A stretch of 64,000 nucleotides of DNA from Thermoproteota archaeon. Lineage in GTDB: Archaea; Thermoproteota; Thermoprotei; Gearchaeales; Gearchaeaceae. This document shows, piece after piece, positions 18,030-36,155 of this stretch. Position numbers and translations under genes: made by a program. Within the stretch, counting starts at the first letter, position 1; the number at the start of each line of letters is the position of its first letter. The notes under the pieces were generated by a model that was not told the origin of the DNA, did no database searches, and saw nothing but the letters and a program-made list of their open reading frames with translations. Location: the NCBI GenBank assembly GCA_032249235.1, contig JAVVGF010000004.1:96001-160000 (forward strand), read 5' to 3'.

Positions 18030-19958
18030 TCACTCTGGAATAAGTTTGTCTTCTTTTGAATATTTGAAATATATACAACCTAGAGGAGGTAATGAAATTT
18101 CAATAGAATAAGGTCTATTATGAATAGGTTCTTCTTTAGCTTTCACTCCTCCAAAATTTCCCCATCCACTACCGCCATATACTTCTGCATCAGTATTTAG
18201 TATTTCTTTCCAAAATCCTAGTCTCGGTACTCCTATCTTATAGTTTTCTCTAGGAACAGGTGTGAAATTACAAACAACTAAAATGATTTCTTCGCCATCT
18301 AAGCTTTTCCTTACAAAGCTTATTATACTTTTTTCCCAATCGTTGAAGTCTATCCATTCAAATCCTTCTCTTTTAAAATCAGTTTCATGTAAAGCTCTTT
18401 CCCTTTTGTATTTTTCATTCAAATCTTTAACTAATCTTTGTATACCTGCATGAAACTTATCTTTAAGTAAATGCCATTCCAATTCTGCATCATGATTCCA
18501 CTCGCTTCTTTGTCCAAATTCGTTTCCCATGAAAAGCAATTTCTTTCCAGGATGAGCATACATATAAGCATAAAGTAATCTGAGATTTGCAAATTTTTGC
18601 CATTCATCACCAGGCATTTTGTATAACAACGAATGCTTGCCATGAACTACTTCATCATGAGATAAAGGAAGCACGAAATTCTCTGAAAATGCATACCAAA
18701 TGCTAAAAGTAAGCATGTTATGATGATATTTTCTATAAATTGGGTCTTTGGACATATATTCAAGTATATCATGCATCCAACCCATATTCCATTTCATGCC
18801 GAATCCCAATCCACCAGCATATACAGGCCAAGAAACCATCGGCCATGCAGTTGATTCTTCTGCTATTGTTTGAACATCAGGATAATATTTGTATACAGCT
18901 TCATTCAGTTCCCTTATGAATGATATTGCTTCAAGGTTTTCTTTTCCTCCATATATATTTGGAACCCATTCACCGGGTTTTCTTGAATAGTCTAGATATA
19001 GCATTGAAGCAACAGCATCTATTCTTAGTCCATCAACATGATATTTATCAAGCCAAAACAAAGCCGAGCTAATTAAAAATGCTCTCACTTCATTTTTTCC
19101 ATAATCGAATATATAGCTATTCCAATCAGGATGGTATCTTTTCCTCCAATCTTCATATTCATAAAGATAAGTCCCATCAAAGTATGCTAAACCATGTCCA
19201 TCAGTTGCGAAATGTGAAGGAACCCAATCAAGTATTACCCCAATATCGTTTTTATGCAATTCTTCGATTAGATGCATGAAATCCTGTGGTTTACCATATC
19301 TTGAAGTAGGAGAAAAATATCCAGTTATTTGATAACCCCAGCTACCATAAAATGGATGCTCCATTACAGGTAAAAATTCTACATGCGTAAATCCCAGTTC
19401 TTTTACATATTTAGGAAGTTCTTCAGACAACTCTAGATAGCTTAACCATCTATTACTTTCTTCTTTTCTCCTTTTCCAAGATCCTAAATGAACTTCATAT
19501 ATCGCAATAGGTGCTTTTAAAGAATTCTTTTGAAATCTATTTTTCATCCAATCATCATCCTTCCACTCATAGCTTAGATCCCAAACTATCGATGCAGTCT
19601 TTGGAGGTTCTTCGCTAAAGAATGCGAAAGGGTCTGCCTTATCGATTTCGTAATTTCCAGCTTCTATTTTGTATTTATAACGATCTCCCATTTTTACACC
19701 TGGAATGAATCCTTCCCATATTCCTGCATCTTCTCGCTTAAAAAGTAAATGCTTTTCTGAATTCCATTCATTAAAATCTCCTATTACTGAAACGCTTTTA
19801 GCATTTGGAGCCCATACAGCAAAATAAACTCCTTTTTCACCATCAAGCTCTAGCACATGTGAACCTAGCTTTTCATAAAGCCTATAATGCTTACCAGATT
19901 TGAATAAATAAACATCATAATCTGTTATCAATGAATATTTGATGACTTCTCTAACCAT
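18030..19958 (-). CDS. glgB: 1,4-alpha-glucan branching enzyme (GH13, bacterial type)
   Basis: [40 protein letters not shown] and [10 protein letters not shown] motifs. Confidence 0.96.
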
Positions 19959-19991: not shown

Positions 19992-21224
19992 ATGGTAGAA
20001 TTATTTCTTTCATTATTAGGCTTAATAAAAAAACATAACGAATGGAGATTGAAAAATTCAATAAATTTGATAAGTTCAGAAAATATACTAAGCCCTGAAG
20101 CGCGAGCACTTTTGGCTATTGATTTTGCAGGTAGATATACTTCAAGGGAATCGTTTTATAGGGGAACTAGGTATATGGATGAAATTGAAAACATAGGTAT
20201 AAAAGTAGCCAAAGATTTATTCAAGGCTGAATATGCAGATTTAAGAGCACTATCTGGTCATATCGCAACACTTGCTTTTCTAGCTTCAAACGTAAAAGAA
20301 AATGAAACCATTCTTTGCGTTTCACCTGAAGATGGAGGTTATCCTGGCATGGCAAAAAATGCTTTACCTAAGTTTTTAAGAATAAACGTTGAATATCTAC
20401 CTTTTAACAAAGAAGAATACATCATAGACGTTGATGCTACTTTAAATTTAATAGAAAAAGTTAAACCTAGTTTTATTATTTTCGATTTTAGCTTAGTACT
20501 TAGAAAGCAACCTGTTCAAGAAATTTATTCTAAAAGTAAAGACAAAGAAATAAAAATAGCTTATGATGGTTCGCACGTTTTAGGTTTAATTGCAGGCGGT
20601 GAATTTCAAGATCCTTTGAGAGAAGGAGCAGTAGCATTATATGGTTCAACACATAAATCTTTTTTCGGTCCTCAAGGAGGTATAATTTTATCGAATAAAG
20701 AAATAGGAGATAAAATCGATGAAACCATTTTTCCTTCCATTGTAGATAATGCGCATTGGAACAGGATTGCTTCGCTAACTTTAGCTTTAATTGAAATGAA
20801 AGAATTTGGTAAGGAATATGCAAAACAAGTTATAAACAATTCTAAAAGATTGGCAAAGTCTTTGCTCGAATTCGGATTGCCTATTAAAGGACCAAGAGGT
20901 ATTTTAACAGAAAGTCATCAAATCTATTTAAATTTCGCAAGCAAAGAAGAGAATCAAAGATTTGCAATTGAGCTTGAAAAAGTTAACATAATAACAGATA
21001 GTGCTATAAGATTAGGGACCAATGAGGTCACCAGATTAGGCATGAAGGAAAAGGATATGGATATAATAGCAGAATTAATTTATAGAACTTATAAAAAAGA
21101 AGATTCAGAAAAGATAAGAAGCGAAGTGATCAAGCTAAAGAGTGAATTTAATGAAATTCATTTCAGATTTAATTATTCAAATCTTGAAGAAATTTTTGAA
21201 ATTATATTAAATTATGGATATTAA
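19992..21224 (+). CDS. glyA: serine hydroxymethyltransferase (archaeal type)
   Basis: LISSEN, YDGSHVLGL, PLP-Lys motif STHKSFFGPQGG, and IRLGT. Confidence 0.92.
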   Translation: MVELFLSLLGLIKKHNEWRLKNSINLISSENILSPEARALLAIDFAGRYTSRESFYRGTRYMDEIENIGIKVAKDLFKAEYADLRALSGHIATLAFLASNVKENETILCVSPEDGGYPGMAKNALPKFLRINVEYLPFNKEEYIIDVDATLNLIEKVKPSFIIFDFSLVLRKQPVQEIYSKSKDKEIKIAYDGSHVLGLIAGGEFQDPLREGAVALYGSTHKSFFGPQGGIILSNKEIGDKIDETIFPSIVDNAHWNRIASLTLALIEMKEFGKEYAKQVINNSKRLAKSLLEFGLPIKGPRGILTESHQIYLNFASKEENQRFAIELEKVNIITDSAIRLGTNEVTRLGMKEKDMDIIAELIYRTYKKEDSEKIRSEVIKLKSEFNEIHFRFNYSNLEEIFEIILNYGY

Positions 21225-21663
21225 ATATATTTTAATGATAACCTTAATTGTTCTTTTTATTCTTTTAGTTTTTGGAACATTAATTATTCTTCCTATGTGG
21301 CAAATGCACATGATGATGATGGGAGGTTATTCTTTTCCTATGTTTTGGTTTTTAATTATTATCCTAATTCCATTTGTTATAGTATTAATTATATATCTTT
21401 TATTACCTTCGCAGAAAATTGAAAAAAATTATCAGGAAGTAAAACAATACGTCTATCCTTTAACAAATGAAGAGAAAAACATAGTTGAATTTTTGAAACA
21501 AAACAATTATAGATCTACACAAAAAGAAATTCAACAACATTTTAAACTCTCAAAAACTAAAGCGCATAGAATTTTGGCTAGATTAGAATCTAGAGGTATA
21601 ATAATAAGGACTAAAAGAGGTAGAGAAATGCTTGTCGTTTTAAAAAAAGAAGAAGTTTCATGA
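21214..21663 (+). CDS. membrane-anchored winged-HTH regulator with Met-rich loop
   Basis: Two TM helices flank MWQMHMMMMGG. C-terminal wHTH LTNEE...TQKEI...LSKTKAHRILARLESRGII...GR. Confidence 0.8.
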   Translation: MDIKYILMITLIVLFILLVFGTLIILPMWQMHMMMMGGYSFPMFWFLIIILIPFVIVLIIYLLLPSQKIEKNYQEVKQYVYPLTNEEKNIVEFLKQNNYRSTQKEIQQHFKLSKTKAHRILARLESRGIIIRTKRGREMLVVLKKEEVS

Positions 21664-21696
21664 AACTTTTTGAAACTGTTTTTCCAGAAAGTTTCA
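21653..21696. promoter_or_regulatory. putative operator: palindromic TGAAACT half-sites
   Basis: Perfect 16-bp palindrome AAGTTTCATGAAACTT (21653-21668), plus TGAAACT-N12-AGTTTCA (21671-21696), upstream of ORF 21737. Confidence 0.6.
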
Positions 21697-21736
21697 CTAA
21701 AGAAATAAAATTAAAGTAAAGCATTGAAAGCTTGAA

Positions 21737-21964
21737 ATGGACAAAAATCTATTGGTTGGTGTGCTTATAGGCATACTAGTAACGCTAGTATTCACAGCCT
21801 TTTTAGGCGTAGCAACATATGCCAATATGATGGGATGGAATAACGGAAAAGCAATGCATAATGGTGGTCATATGCATGACATGAATGACCATATGCAACA
21901 AATGCATGATGAATGTGAAGAAATGATGCATGAACATGGAAATTATACTGAACATATGAGTTAA
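21737..21964 (+). CDS. small membrane-anchored/secreted His/Met-rich protein
   Basis: N-terminal hydrophobic helix, then MHNGGHMHDMNDHMQQMHDECEEMMHEH. Confidence 0.75.
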   Translation: MDKNLLVGVLIGILVTLVFTAFLGVATYANMMGWNNGKAMHNGGHMHDMNDHMQQMHDECEEMMHEHGNYTEHMS

Positions 21965-21985
21965 ACGATTCATATTTTTTCTTTA

Positions 21986-22879
21986 TTGTTTTTTATGAGT
22001 AAAAAATTATTCTTTGCCGTTCAACTTTGGGGCTATGATATAAAGATTTTGGATTTATTTGAAGAACTAGAAGAATTAGGATATAACGCAGCATATTATG
22101 GCGATGGTCCTTTTTCTTGGCTTTTAGATTGCTTTTCAGTATTATCTTATGTAGCTTCTAAGACTAAGAAAATCAGAATTGGTCCTGCTGTCACATATCT
22201 TGAAGGAAGTTATAGGCATCCTATTGCAATAGCTAAGGCTTTATTCACAATTGCAAGGTTAAGTAACAATAGAGTTGATGCAAGATTTGGTTTCATAAAA
22301 GAAGAAGCTAGAAAATATTGGTCTACGTTTGGAATTAACATTCCAAGAGTAAAAGAAAGGATAGATAGGCTTGAAGAAGGATTGATTATAATGAAAGAAT
22401 TAATGAATAAGGGGTTCTCTAATTTCAAAGGAAGATACTACAAAGTAGATATAAGCGATTTTAAACCTGCAGCAAAAATGCCAATTTGTATTTCAGCAAT
22501 GGGCAAGAGAACAATAGAAATAGCATTGAAGCATGCTAATATATGGGAATTATCTTACTTGCCTCCTGAAATGTTAAATGTTATCATAGAAAAGTATAGC
22601 GAAAAAATAAAAAACATAGAAATTTCTCTTGAATTAGATGTCGTTATTGGAAAGAATGAAGAAGATTTTAAAAGGAAATTTAATGAATACTTAAAAATTA
22701 GAAAAACAAAAGAAGAACCCTTCATTAAATCTGCAATAAAGGGAAAACCTGAAGAATGTATTAAAAAGATTGAAGAATACCTTAATTTAGGTATTAAAAG
22801 ATTTACTTTAGCTTTCAACGAACTTCCTAATTTGGAAGGAATTAAGATTTTTGCTGAAGAAGTAATGAGTTCGTTTTAA
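21986..22879 (+). CDS. LLM-class flavin/F420-dependent oxidoreductase
   Basis: VASKTKKIRIGPAV, RHPIAIAK, RLEEGL, FKGRYY and GKPEEC motifs. Confidence 0.85.
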   Translation: MFFMSKKLFFAVQLWGYDIKILDLFEELEELGYNAAYYGDGPFSWLLDCFSVLSYVASKTKKIRIGPAVTYLEGSYRHPIAIAKALFTIARLSNNRVDARFGFIKEEARKYWSTFGINIPRVKERIDRLEEGLIIMKELMNKGFSNFKGRYYKVDISDFKPAAKMPICISAMGKRTIEIALKHANIWELSYLPPEMLNVIIEKYSEKIKNIEISLELDVVIGKNEEDFKRKFNEYLKIRKTKEEPFIKSAIKGKPEECIKKIEEYLNLGIKRFTLAFNELPNLEGIKIFAEEVMSSF

Positions 22880-23002
22880 TAGTCTTTAATTCAAGCATTA
22901 TTAAAAGATCAATCTCGTATTGAAATAACTTCTCAATGCCTAAATCTTAAAAAGAATAAGATTTCAACAAAGAATAAATAAAGGTCTTTCCTTTTCACTT
23001 CC

Positions 23003-24043
23003 ATGGAGTATATTCGTTTAGGCTGGTCGGGCCTTAAGGTTTCTAGGATTGCACTTGGAACGATGTCTTTCGGCGATCCAAATTTGCAATTATATGGACG
23101 CGGAGGATGGGTAGTAGGTAAAGAAGAAGCATTCAAGGTATTGAAAAGAGCATGGGATCTAGGTATTAATTTCTTCGATACTGCCAATTATTACTCACTT
23201 GGAAAGTCTGAAGAAATATTGGGTGAATTTTTGCAAGGGATAAGAGAAGATGCTGTAATAGCTACTAAAGTATTCTTTCCAATGAGTGAGAAACCAAACG
23301 ATAGAGGATTATCAAGGAAACATATAATGAAGCAAATAAACGATTCACTAAGAAGGCTTAAGACTGATTATGTAGATTTATACCAAATTCATCGTTGGGA
23401 TTACGAAACTCCTATTGAGGAAACCTTATCAACGCTCACGGATCTAGTTAGACAAGGTAAAGTAAGATATATCGGCGCCTCAAGCATGTGGACATGGCAA
23501 TTTGCAAAGGCTTTCTTCATTGCTGAATTTAAAGGCTATGAAAAGTTTGTAAGTATACAAACACTCTACAATTTGCTATACAGAGAAGAAGAAAGAGAAA
23601 TGATACCTTTCTGTAAAGCTCATAATATTGGATACATGGCTTATAGCCCTAATGCTGCAGGAGTCCTTTCAGGAAAATATTATAAAGATGGCAAGCTTGT
23701 CGTCGAGCCTGATGCACCTGAAAGATTAAGACCTGAAACAGGATTTTATCCTTACAAAATTTATGTAGAACCTCCTGAAAATGCTGAGATTGTGAGAAGA
23801 GTTATAGAAGTTGCTAGGAATAAAGAAGTAACGCCAACTCAAGTAGCAATATCATGGATACTTCACAAAGGTGTTATACCGATAATAGGAACTAGCAAAG
23901 TTGAACATCTTGAAGAATATGTTAAGGCACTAGAGATAAAGCTTAAAGAAGATGAGATTAAATATCTAGAGGAACCATATAAGCCAAAGCCAGTGCTACA
24001 TATAACTCCTGCTCCTGCAATATCTCATCTTTTTAAAATCTAA
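23003..24043 (+). CDS. aldo/keto reductase
   Basis: GLKVSRIALGTM, FFDTANYY, SLRRLKTDYVDLYQIH and GKVRYIG motifs. Confidence 0.95.
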   Translation: MEYIRLGWSGLKVSRIALGTMSFGDPNLQLYGRGGWVVGKEEAFKVLKRAWDLGINFFDTANYYSLGKSEEILGEFLQGIREDAVIATKVFFPMSEKPNDRGLSRKHIMKQINDSLRRLKTDYVDLYQIHRWDYETPIEETLSTLTDLVRQGKVRYIGASSMWTWQFAKAFFIAEFKGYEKFVSIQTLYNLLYREEEREMIPFCKAHNIGYMAYSPNAAGVLSGKYYKDGKLVVEPDAPERLRPETGFYPYKIYVEPPENAEIVRRVIEVARNKEVTPTQVAISWILHKGVIPIIGTSKVEHLEEYVKALEIKLKEDEIKYLEEPYKPKPVLHITPAPAISHLFKI

Positions 24044-24426
24044 CTTTCTTCTTTCTTTTTTGGAATGAATTTCAAGGATACTGAATTTACGCAATATCTT
24101 GTATTTTTAGGCGTGAAGCCTTCCCCATAAAAAATATGTCCAAGATGTGCTCCACAATTTGCACATTGTATCTCTATTCTTATTCCATCAGGATCAGGTA
24201 GCTTTTTTACTGCTCCAGGTATTTCATCATCAAAGCTTGGCCATCCGCATTCAGATTCAAATTTGTCTTCGGATCTAAATAGTGGAGCTTCGCATCTTTT
24301 GCAAACATAAATTCCAGGTTCGAAGTGATAAACATATTCTCCAGTGAAAGGTGGTTCTGTTCCTTTATGAACTATAACCCATTCTTCAAAAGGATTCAAC
24401 TTATTCCACTTCTTATTCTTTTCCAT
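24040..24426 (-). CDS. msrB: methionine-R-sulfoxide reductase
   Basis: GTEPPFTG, CKRC, GWPSF, CANCGAHLGH and RYCVNS motifs. Confidence 0.96.
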   Translation of the reverse strand: MEKNKKWNKLNPFEEWVIVHKGTEPPFTGEYVYHFEPGIYVCKRCEAPLFRSEDKFESECGWPSFDDEIPGAVKKLPDPDGIRIEIQCANCGAHLGHIFYGEGFTPKNTRYCVNSVSLKFIPKKKEES

Positions 24427-35669: not shown

Positions 35670-35741
35670 TTTTATTATTTTTTGCTAGTTGATTGTTAAT
35701 CAATTTTAGAAAGTTTATATATGCATATGTATAATATTATT

Positions 35742-36155
35742 ATGGCTGAAGAAAAACCTACTGCAGCATTCGTTCTATCTCTTATAGGAGGAATATTCAT
35801 ATTACTTCATGCAATAGCAGTACTAATATTTGTAGGAGTAATAGGCTCAGCATTTTCCGTTGTTCCTATTTTTGGAATGATAGGCGGATTATTAATGATT
35901 TTTGGTATCGTAGGTTTGATCTTTGCAATTTTGGTAATAATAGGTGCAGTGATGATAAATTCTGGTGATCCTCAAAGAGTAAGAACAGGTGGCATACTCG
36001 TTTTGATTTTTTCGATTCTTTCTCTTTTCACAGCTGGCGGAGGATTTTTTATTGGCTTCATATTAGGTTTAGTAGGAGGAATTCTTGCATTGGTTTGGAA
36101 ACCTTCGAAAGCTCCAGTTACTCAAGAAGCTACGGCACCTCCACCTCCTAGTTGA
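35742..36155 (+). CDS. 4-TM Gly-rich membrane protein (DUF4064/DUF6114-like)
   Basis: KPTAAFVLSLIGGI...GGFFIGFILGLVGGILAL. TATA TTTATATA at 35714-21 favours a leaderless start at 35742. Confidence 0.75.
   Translation: MAEEKPTAAFVLSLIGGIFILLHAIAVLIFVGVIGSAFSVVPIFGMIGGLLMIFGIVGLIFAILVIIGAVMINSGDPQRVRTGGILVLIFSILSLFTAGGGFFIGFILGLVGGILALVWKPSKAPVTQEATAPPPPS

Follow-up and report, generated by a model that had tools for sequence, protein, structure and literature searches.

To our knowledge, the characterised metalloregulator families (ArsR/SmtB, MerR, CsoR, CopY, Fur, DtxR, NikR and archaeal CopR) are all soluble and read the cytoplasm, and metal outside the cell is sensed only through multi-protein systems, either two-component pairs or sets of extracytoplasmic-function (ECF) sigma and anti-sigma factors. 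Matched passages of a survey of transmembrane transcription regulators (TTRs) give about four such proteins per archaeal genome, with the Thermoproteota enriched (PMC10269533), and the membrane-bound ArnR and ArnR1 of Sulfolobus acidocaldarius are described among archaeal examples (PMC10269533, PMC6396743). The words "metal" and "copper" are absent from the survey PMC10269533 in a term search. Archaeal CopR (CopT in some papers) is described as an Lrp-type helix-turn-helix (HTH) joined to a TRASH domain, regulating copA (PMC7830388), and SilE and PcoE as periplasmic His/Met-rich molecular sponges for Ag(I) and Cu(I) (PMC5008109). Here, we describe a locus within a 64,000-nucleotide window (the whole stretch of DNA analysed, G000:C4:96001-160000) of a Thermoproteota archaeon, whose 1.43 Mb genome lies on 18 contigs, has 31.7% G+C and is 91% complete; the sequencing runs that contain this DNA carry the label hot springs metagenome. 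In this locus, a gene for a membrane-anchored winged-helix regulator is followed by conserved TGAAAC repeats and a gene for a small His/Met-rich peptide. We are confident that these constitute a regulator-operator-target module, and we think it rather probable that the module is a one-component transmembrane Cu(I)/Ag(I) sensor controlling a SilE-like surface peptide.

The regulator, 149 aa, is encoded at 21214..21663 on the + strand and is present once in the genome. Two membrane helices, at residues 5-27 (21226..21294, a hydrophobic stretch) and 43-64 (21340..21405), flank the cluster MWQMHMMMMG (residues 28-37, 21295..21324), the proposed metal-sensing site, which contains 6 Met and 1 His in ten residues and is kept in relatives (alignments A1 and A3), with kindred motifs (for example, WQH..M..MM.RMMGG) in more distant ones; the whole protein contains no Cys. 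An AlphaFold2 model based on a 79-row alignment (mean predicted local distance difference test, pLDDT, 85.6) places helices at residues 3-35 and 43-63 and a winged helix at 85-143 (21466..21642), with block-mean pLDDT of 92-98 over residues 81-140; the intervening linker (64-84) is poorly defined. Given these helix boundaries, the Met/His run would form the outer end of helix 1 and a 7-residue turn. Residues 84-143 belong to DUF7343 (PF24034), an archaeal winged-helix domain of unknown function, scoring 37.3 bits against a gathering cut-off of 27.6 (E 2.5e-9); HTH_24 (28.3 bits, cut-off 21.9) and MarR_2 (28.5 bits, cut-off 27) are also exceeded, and a Caldarchaeum-type homologue scores 47.1 bits for DUF7343. 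In Foldseek the winged helix superposes on MarR/ArsR-type domains (probability 1.00, best E 1.2e-3), and OmpR-type domains are not matched. With two predicted hydrophobic helices and an HTH domain in one protein, the regulator qualifies as a TTR. The winged helix must reach DNA, so the turn between the helices, and with it the Met/His loop, probably faces outside. The open reading frame (ORF), its composition, the model and the Pfam and Foldseek matches all agree with an earlier note, made from the DNA letters, which had described a protein of two membrane helices with a Met/His loop and a C-terminal winged HTH.

Three other assignments were rejected. Likeness to Lrs14/Sta1 is confined to the winged helix (NCBIfam NF040939, 32.2 bits versus 90; NF053606, 32.8 bits versus 80), the score for ArsR/SmtB metalloregulators (NF033788) is 19.9 bits against a cut-off of 55, and the HTH-plus-TRASH design of CopR is contradicted by the lack of any Pfam YHS/TRASH match and of Cys. 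Homodimer prediction with two copies of the regulator (alignment A4, controls not run) scored 0.00 in both runs, which is evidence neither way.

Four copies of TGAAACT fall within 43 bp at the junction of the two genes, at 21654-60(-), 21661-67(+), 21671-77(+) and 21690-96(-); the word occurs 22 times in the window, compared with 14.6 +/- 3.9 in shuffles. The earlier note had seen these four half-sites, including a perfect 16-bp palindrome, as an intergenic operator. The copies and the palindrome (AAGTTTCATGAAACTT, 21653..21668) are indeed there, but the palindrome overlaps the stop codon of the regulator (TGA, 21661-21663), so that its left half is coding and not intergenic. The window has no second copy of its 14-nt core, and the palindrome is specific to this lineage, being found in only 2 of 6 related loci, those of the window and G007, the two closest genomes. 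What is conserved is a neighbouring inverted repeat, TGAAAC-N14-GTTTCA (21671..21696), present in 6/6 loci, and it is this element, rather than the palindrome, that we regard as the operator candidate. When the six intergenic regions are aligned, TGAAAC and GAAAGTTTCA show no change and keep a fixed spacing, while the 14-nt spacer between them varies. In all six, the repeat lies directly upstream of an AT-rich box about 40 nt before the peptide ATG. In the window this box is AAATAAAATTAAAG (21703..21716, +), a TATA-like sequence 21 to 34 nt upstream of the ATG, a spacing that fits a leaderless transcript; we read it as the putative promoter of the peptide gene. The inverted repeat abuts the upstream edge of this B recognition element (BRE)/TATA region. 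A direct repeat, TGAAAC-N4-TGAAAC (21661..21676, +), is the sole match to its pattern in the window, where 0.06 would be expected.

It could be argued that the repeats serve the regulator gene as an RNA hairpin or terminator and that the two genes are neighbours without a functional link. The inverted repeat could form a 7-bp stem, and the spacer contains a T-run in 4 of the 6 loci. However, the predicted RNA fold of the region (minimum free energy -11.4 kcal/mol, z = -0.72) is no better than that of shuffled sequences, 46 of 200 being at least as stable, and the invariant arms have undergone no compensatory change among the six loci. Moreover, the gene pair persists where its flanks differ, and distant relatives carry the hexamer in divergent promoter regions as direct repeats, from which no hairpin can form. 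We rejected this idea, which seems to us very improbable; because the fold is no stabler than shuffles, a protein-binding DNA site is the better reading. Across the 1.43 Mb genome, TGAAAC pairs of any geometry number 12 (4 for a reversed control word), and nine of these are inside coding sequence. Only the three overlapping pairs at 21671-21696 fall outside called ORFs. This genome-wide pair scan thus found no wider TGAAAC regulon, and the detectable regulon is the peptide gene alone.

The proposed target or effector, a peptide of 75 aa (21737..21964, +), begins with MDKN and a hydrophobic helix of about 24 residues (residues 5-28, 21749..21820), which from its sequence could be a signal anchor or a signal peptide. 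The 46-residue tail that follows (residues 30-75, 21824..21961) holds 8 His, 10 Met, 1 Cys, 3 Asp and 5 Glu and probably lies outside the cell. This is the anchored peptide with a dense His/Met tail and a single Cys that had been noticed before, and its design holds up. Residues G8, I11, G12 and L14 are invariant, as are M56, H57, C60 and M64 across 7 sequences, the latter four defining the motif MHxxCxxxM (residues 56-64, nt 21902-21928, +); the rest of the sequence changes quickly. In 6/6 pairwise comparisons, substitutions in the + frame are fewest at codon position 2 and most frequent at position 3. When the genome's 4822 ORFs of 40 aa or more are ranked by Met plus His in a 20-residue window, the top three are the peptide, its antisense shadow and the regulator. 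That antisense ORF (21803-21973, 56 aa) was rejected as a gene: since ATG and CAT are reverse complements, it is the mirror image of the peptide gene, and the conserved N-terminal helix, the promoter and the terminator belong to the + frame alone. This terminator is probably of the archaeal oligo-T type, formed by two T6 tracts 3′ of the stop codon (21975..21994, +).

Homology searches with the peptide returned little. Pfam at E<=1 gave only four weak rows at chance level and no SilE/PcoE family, NCBIfam gave 0 families, and PDB sequences at E<=10 gave 0 matches. In the ESM Atlas the best look-alike had a feature score of 0.81, below the meaningful level, and the structure rows were generic helices. 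A word-indexed homologue search found just 2 clusters, both close relatives. Within the gene (window 21812-21905) are two 11-nt direct repeats, GCAACATATGC and GCAACAAATGC, 83 nt apart. A 267-nt contig (depth 3.6) from a metatranscriptome run of a near relative covers 21634-21818 and 21902-21980, promoter region included, and lacks exactly the 83 nt between these repeats, which would truncate the peptide; this gap could be a strain variant or an artefact. The contig records presence in an RNA library only, with no start, strand or level readable.

The gene pair is a conserved unit. Among eight other genomes of the window's family, the regulator is found in four (G001, G002, G005 and G007) and went undetected in the other four (G003, G004, G006 and G008; completeness 67-89%). 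In all four, as well as on a metagenome contig (L037), a peptide of 69-83 aa and like design follows the regulator. Both the pair and TGAAAC-N14-GTTTCA are kept in 6/6 related loci, and the pair stands out as a unit because its outer flanks differ in G005 and G002. Two of these loci have irregular regulator genes. On the metagenome contig (L037:3492-3964) a frameshift or sequencing error divides the regulator into ORFs of 51 aa and 93 aa, with the inverted repeat and an 83-aa peptide intact. In G002 (contig C19, L005/L030) a run of N lies within the 3′ end of the regulator, with the last ~45 codons on both sides; this is a scaffolding gap and no real duplication.

The same DNA word accompanies much more distant regulators. 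We collected 20 loci from 11 other genera, in which the regulators have about 30% identity to that of the window, with ~6 kb on each side where the contig allowed (231,791 bases in all). These loci contain 15 TGAAAC pairs, of which 14, spread over 10 of the loci, are no more than 300 bp from the regulator gene; the fifteenth lies just upstream of a Met-rich secreted gene, there 4.7 kb from the regulator. With the reversed control pattern, the count is 0. The TGAAAC word thus travels with the regulator and its target. Most of the distant pairs are 11-bp direct repeats (TGAAAC-N5-TGAAAC) placed between divergent TATA-like boxes, and like pairs occur in three further metagenome loci. The usual divergent neighbour is a Met/His/Cys-rich exported protein of 230-300 aa that matches no Pfam family. 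Its N-terminal stretch, GMxGGMMGxCPC, is disordered; two motifs, PEPGPNMMWNTKYGMH and WYHxWHG, are conserved, and there are two PepSY-like domains (AlphaFold2 pLDDT 77; top Foldseek matches, the YpeB C-terminal domain, FoxB and a PepSY-like lipoprotein). This tandem-PepSY family is represented by L077:5101-5823 and 14 homologues (alignment A5), in which PEPGPNMMWNTKYGMH and WYHxWHG are invariant. After it come a Met/Trp/Gly-rich DUF6114 membrane protein and a DUF411 protein.

The neighbourhoods of these distant regulators are rich in copper proteins. A scan of the 154 proteins encoded no more than 3 kb from the regulator detected one or more copper families in 15 of the 20 loci and 8 of the 11 genera. 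DUF411 (CopG), which we take to be a copper-cluster protein, occurs in seven loci (L077, L078, L080, L081, L085, L086 and L087), and in 5/5 genomes tested it is single-copy and within 2 kb of the regulator. A NosL-thioredoxin fusion with a multicopper oxidase is found in three loci (L075, L076 and L077), a plastocyanin- or sulfocyanin-like cupredoxin in five (L077, L090, L091, L092 and L093), a Cu-oxidase fragment in L089, and a P-type ATPase of CopA type with an HMA domain in L094. Relatives among the 20 loci are not independent, but shared ancestry alone is hard to invoke, since different clades pair the regulator with different copper proteins. In the four loci of family f8 (L090-L093, in G055, G259, G242 and G039), the regulator loop reads YMGGYMGMMRG or HCMGMMCG. 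Besides the sulfocyanin-like cupredoxin, these loci encode a protoglobin (2 of the 4), a His/Met/Cys-rich coiled-coil protein of 57-65 aa, and a protein of 66-82 aa with a Trp/Gly-rich N-terminus and one membrane helix, which in two of them has a CPxC motif.

The same architecture might serve another metal, such as Hg, Cd, Zn or Ni, or a broad metal response. The tail of the peptide, being rich in His, Asp and Glu as well, could bind Zn(II) or Ni(II), and among the relatives one regulator lies beside a DtxR/MntR-type repressor and one near a weak ZIP-like match. However, no transport or resistance family for Ni, Zn, Hg or Cd recurs in the 20 loci, to be set against copper families in 15, and Met thioethers, which are typical of Cu(I)/Ag(I) sites such as those of SilE and CusF, bind Zn(II) and Ni(II) poorly. 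We consider such a metal quite unlikely. The earlier note had proposed a Cu/Ag/Ni sensor; both the ligands and the gene neighbourhoods speak for Cu(I)/Ag(I), and nothing speaks for nickel.

Regulators of this kind are widespread. A profile built from 13 sequences and run against 1.84 billion representatives of 50%-identity clusters retrieved 4855 representatives at E<=1e-3 and 648 at E<=1e-10, and most of the best matches are 140-190 aa long and aligned over their full length. Among 401 sampled genomes of the phylum, six families contain full-length matches below E 1e-30, and a metagenome scan with the profile confirmed at least 9 loci, in an under-sampled set. The loop varies within the family. 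We counted Met, His and Cys in 15-residue windows of the N-terminal part of the 108 representatives listed (130-215 aa) and found at least 4 in 63. A recurring motif is (W)M..MM.RMMGG; homologues from records titled Candidatus Caldarchaeum have WQH(D/E)..M..MM.(R/Q)MMG; other groups have HCMGMMCG, CPMC or C-x5-8-C-x-H. Soft-metal ligands are thus retained in the loop even where its sequence changes. The window's genome also encodes a second membrane-associated regulator (G000 contig C2:165043-165891, -), a 282-aa protein that has a winged helix in its N-terminal part and a hydrophobic region rich in Met, GMIGMMMSGLIPVVLMMLPP.

A number of observations speak against a copper sensor and need to be considered together. 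The loop is strongly Met/His/Cys-rich, with at least 6 such residues, in only 36 of the 108 representatives, and 45 have 3 or fewer in their best window. In the window's regulator it is short and partly helical in the model, so it may lie within the membrane interface. The copper link is drawn from relatives at about 30% identity, and 5 of the 20 loci (L079, L082, L083, L084 and L088) have no copper family within 3 kb, although L079 and L083 are cut by contig ends. The main weakness is that Pfam identifies no copper-family gene at the window's own locus. The promoter of the genome's sole copA-type ATPase has no TGAAAC pair. Expression evidence is thin, as the 267-nt RNA-library contig may be DNA carry-over or read-through. 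Finally, the window carries msrB (24040-24426) and an aldo-keto reductase gene 1-2 kb downstream of the pair, and thioredoxin-like (including AhpC-like), glutaredoxin-like and protoglobin neighbours occur in relatives; both would suit a response to oxidants.

The variability and very small size of the loop raise the alternative that it is not a ligand site. The protein would then be a membrane-tethered regulator set by proteolytic release, by the state of the membrane or envelope, or by a small membrane partner, with its Met-richness structural or incidental. Many transmembrane regulators act through partners or proteolysis, ToxR/ToxS, TcpP/TcpH and CadC being examples. However, the Met/His motif is kept down to about 30% identity (WQH..M..MM..MMG), and clades that depart from it swap in other soft-metal ligands (Cys/His), not arbitrary residues. 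The targets are equally ligand-rich, and the neighbourhoods are enriched in copper proteins. On balance we find a loop without a ligand role unlikely.

The redox-type neighbours suggest instead that the module senses oxidants or redox state: oxidation of the loop Met residues (or of Cys elsewhere) would switch the regulator, and the peptide would serve as a sacrificial antioxidant outside the cell, to be repaired or replaced during oxidative stress. Oxidation does target both Met and Cys, and the two-Cys loops of some homologues (HCMGMMCG, CPMC, C-x5-8-C-x-H) could form disulfides. The 3′ side of the pair in the window (21986-24426) is redox-flavoured, with a luciferase-like, probably F420-dependent oxidoreductase, the aldo-keto reductase (23003-24043) and msrB on the - strand. 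However, msrB does not adjoin the pair, whose flanking genes vary between loci, and the window's own loop has no Cys. In the relatives, redox-type neighbours are mostly fused to or operonic with copper domains (the NosL-thioredoxin fusion, and glutaredoxin-like N-termini on two DUF411 proteins), and cupredoxins, multicopper oxidase, DUF411 and the CopA-type ATPase are copper-specific. A peptide so rich in His is suited to metal binding and not to radical scavenging. Oxidant sensing is thus an improbable account of the locus, and we continue to favour a Cu(I)/Ag(I) sensor.

By Pfam, the neighbours of the pair in the window are a gene for serine hydroxymethyltransferase (SHMT) upstream, the last 11 nt of which are overlapped by the start of the regulator, and the luciferase-like oxidoreductase, which also comes next in 3 of 5 loci compared. 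A 642-aa ORF (18030-19958, -) on the far side of the SHMT gene resembles, on a reading of its sequence, a GH13 glycogen-branching enzyme. Farther away (35721-36155, +), a DUF6114-like membrane protein of 144 aa has 36% identity to the Met-rich DUF6114 beside distant regulators and does not have their Met/Trp/Gly motif.

The window's genome has a single P-type ATPase (~730 aa, with N-terminal YHS/TRASH), encoded on contig C2 (2808-5082, L024-L026) divergently to a 58-aa TRASH protein. Genome-wide, at 91% completeness, only the N-terminus of this ATPase and the 58-aa protein match PF04945, and no HTH-TRASH regulator of CopR type was found. BLASTP with 13 neighbour proteins of the distant loci recovered the CopA-type ATPase and the DUF6114-like protein without the Met motif; the NosL-thioredoxin query gave two weak matches to short ORFs, and no DUF411, multicopper oxidase, cupredoxin or protoglobin was found at E<=1e-3. 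Because neither a CopR-type regulator nor these four proteins were detected in the genome, the module looks like a minimal form, a sensor with one small binding peptide, more likely for defence than for the supply of copper enzymes.

How might such a module work? Metal binding, the choice of metal, DNA binding, the sign of regulation and the topology are all points that we infer. In our proposal, the N-terminal two-helix hairpin would show MWQMHMMMMG at the outer membrane face, and a 20-residue linker would join it to a cytoplasmic MarR/ArsR-like winged helix. The latter, probably as a dimer, would bind TGAAAC half-sites, with TGAAAC-N14-GTTTCA as the core; the half-sites would lie on one face of the DNA, as they are 20 bp apart, or two helical turns. 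Binding of Cu(I) or Ag(I) by the thioether and imidazole groups of the cluster, perhaps across the dimer, would change the packing of the hairpin. Through the linker, this would rearrange the winged helices on their half-sites and so alter DNA binding or the recruitment of TFB/TBP. Activation is favoured, because the operator candidate lies upstream of the TATA box, and a site upstream of BRE/TATA is more typical of archaeal activators than of repressors. Once induced, the peptide would act as an extracellular sponge or chaperone for Cu(I)/Ag(I), in the manner of SilE/PcoE.

The core of this proposal, a membrane-anchored one-component regulator with an operator and an exported metal-binding target, is supported by the comparative evidence: the six related loci, the distant TGAAAC pairs, the 15 of 20 loci with copper proteins, and the co-occurrence of regulator, TGAAAC repeats and Met-rich exported target across the family. 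There is, in our estimation, an even chance that the locus represents a class of membrane-embedded one-component metalloregulators that are the main sensors of copper outside the cell in the Thermoproteota. In such proteins, extracytoplasmic Cu(I) may be read at the outer tip of the hairpin, by Met/His here and by Cys/His elsewhere, and the signal passed to a winged helix that works on TGAAAC repeats without leaving the membrane. The family would fill the role of the bacterial two-component systems CusRS and CopRS.

If this is true, a copper sensor of 150 residues that itself binds DNA would be the simplest known device for transmembrane metal signalling, and it would explain how archaea without two-component copper sensors detect external copper. 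The proposal offers testable handles in the TGAAAC repeats (inverted, or direct with an 11-bp period), the ligand motifs and the target genes, and other genera offer homologues in genomes assembled as single contigs (G045 and G039 among them), where they adjoin CopA or cupredoxin genes. The usual targets of the family, the tandem-PepSY protein with GMxGGMMGxCPC, the DUF6114 membrane protein and DUF411, are uncharacterised candidates for archaeal copper handling. A regulator this compact could also serve as a heat-stable part for biosensors.

How, then, does the locus compare with described systems? Like the TTRs ToxR, TcpP, CadC and ArnR/ArnR1, the regulator joins membrane helices and a DNA-binding domain in one polypeptide. 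In ToxR and CadC, an OmpR-type winged helix at the N-terminus is followed by a single membrane helix and a folded C-terminal periplasmic sensor domain; ArnR, which controls motility, has an N-terminal HTH, a HAMP-like region and C-terminal membrane helices. The regulator, in contrast, begins with a two-helix hairpin, bears a short Met/His cluster in place of an outer domain, and ends with a MarR/ArsR-like winged helix. A ToxR/CadC-like receptor was rejected on these grounds; with domain order, helix number and winged-helix type all different, it is not a member of the ToxR family, and the description "ToxR-like" in the earlier note holds by analogy only.

For the peptide, the closest parallels are SilE and PcoE. 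Its tail is likewise His/Met-rich, of low complexity, probably disordered, with HxxM/MxxH-like spacing, and it would be induced by a metal sensor. No sequence homology to SilE/PcoE was detected, the likeness being one of composition; the peptide is anchored or cleaved, has one invariant Cys, and is half the size of SilE, which is 143 aa long. A looser parallel is with CpxP, Spy and ZraP, small exported proteins that are induced by an envelope sensor on which they may feed back, and of which ZraP binds metal. The LTXXQ motifs of these proteins are not seen in the peptide sequence, and its Pfam match to Metal_resist (PF13801) is at chance level (E 0.097, 13.3 bits versus a cut-off of 29.2). By analogy with CpxP and ZraP, and as speculation, the peptide might also act back on the loop of its own sensor.

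Our literature searches found no publications on the DUF7343/COG2512/PF24034 family or on a membrane-bound archaeal copper regulator, and in a term search the matched passages of an archaeal silver-response paper contained no membrane-bound regulator. The view that no such archaeal system has been described accordingly stands for its metal-sensing character; membrane-bound archaeal regulators as such are already known from ArnR/ArnR1, and what is new here is one that would sense metal. Like CopR, the characterised copper-responsive regulator of archaea, it would control an adjacent copper-handling gene. CopR, however, is soluble and cytoplasmic and uses a Cys-rich TRASH domain, whereas this regulator, which has neither TRASH/YHS nor Cys, would read the outside. 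In that respect it resembles CusRS, CopRS, PcoRS, SilRS and the CnrYXH-type ECF/anti-sigma systems (PMC6851896), which sense extracytoplasmic metal and induce extracytoplasmic binding or efflux proteins. Those systems rely on two or three proteins and on phosphotransfer or sigma release; here, one small protein would suffice, with no kinase, receiver or sigma factor.

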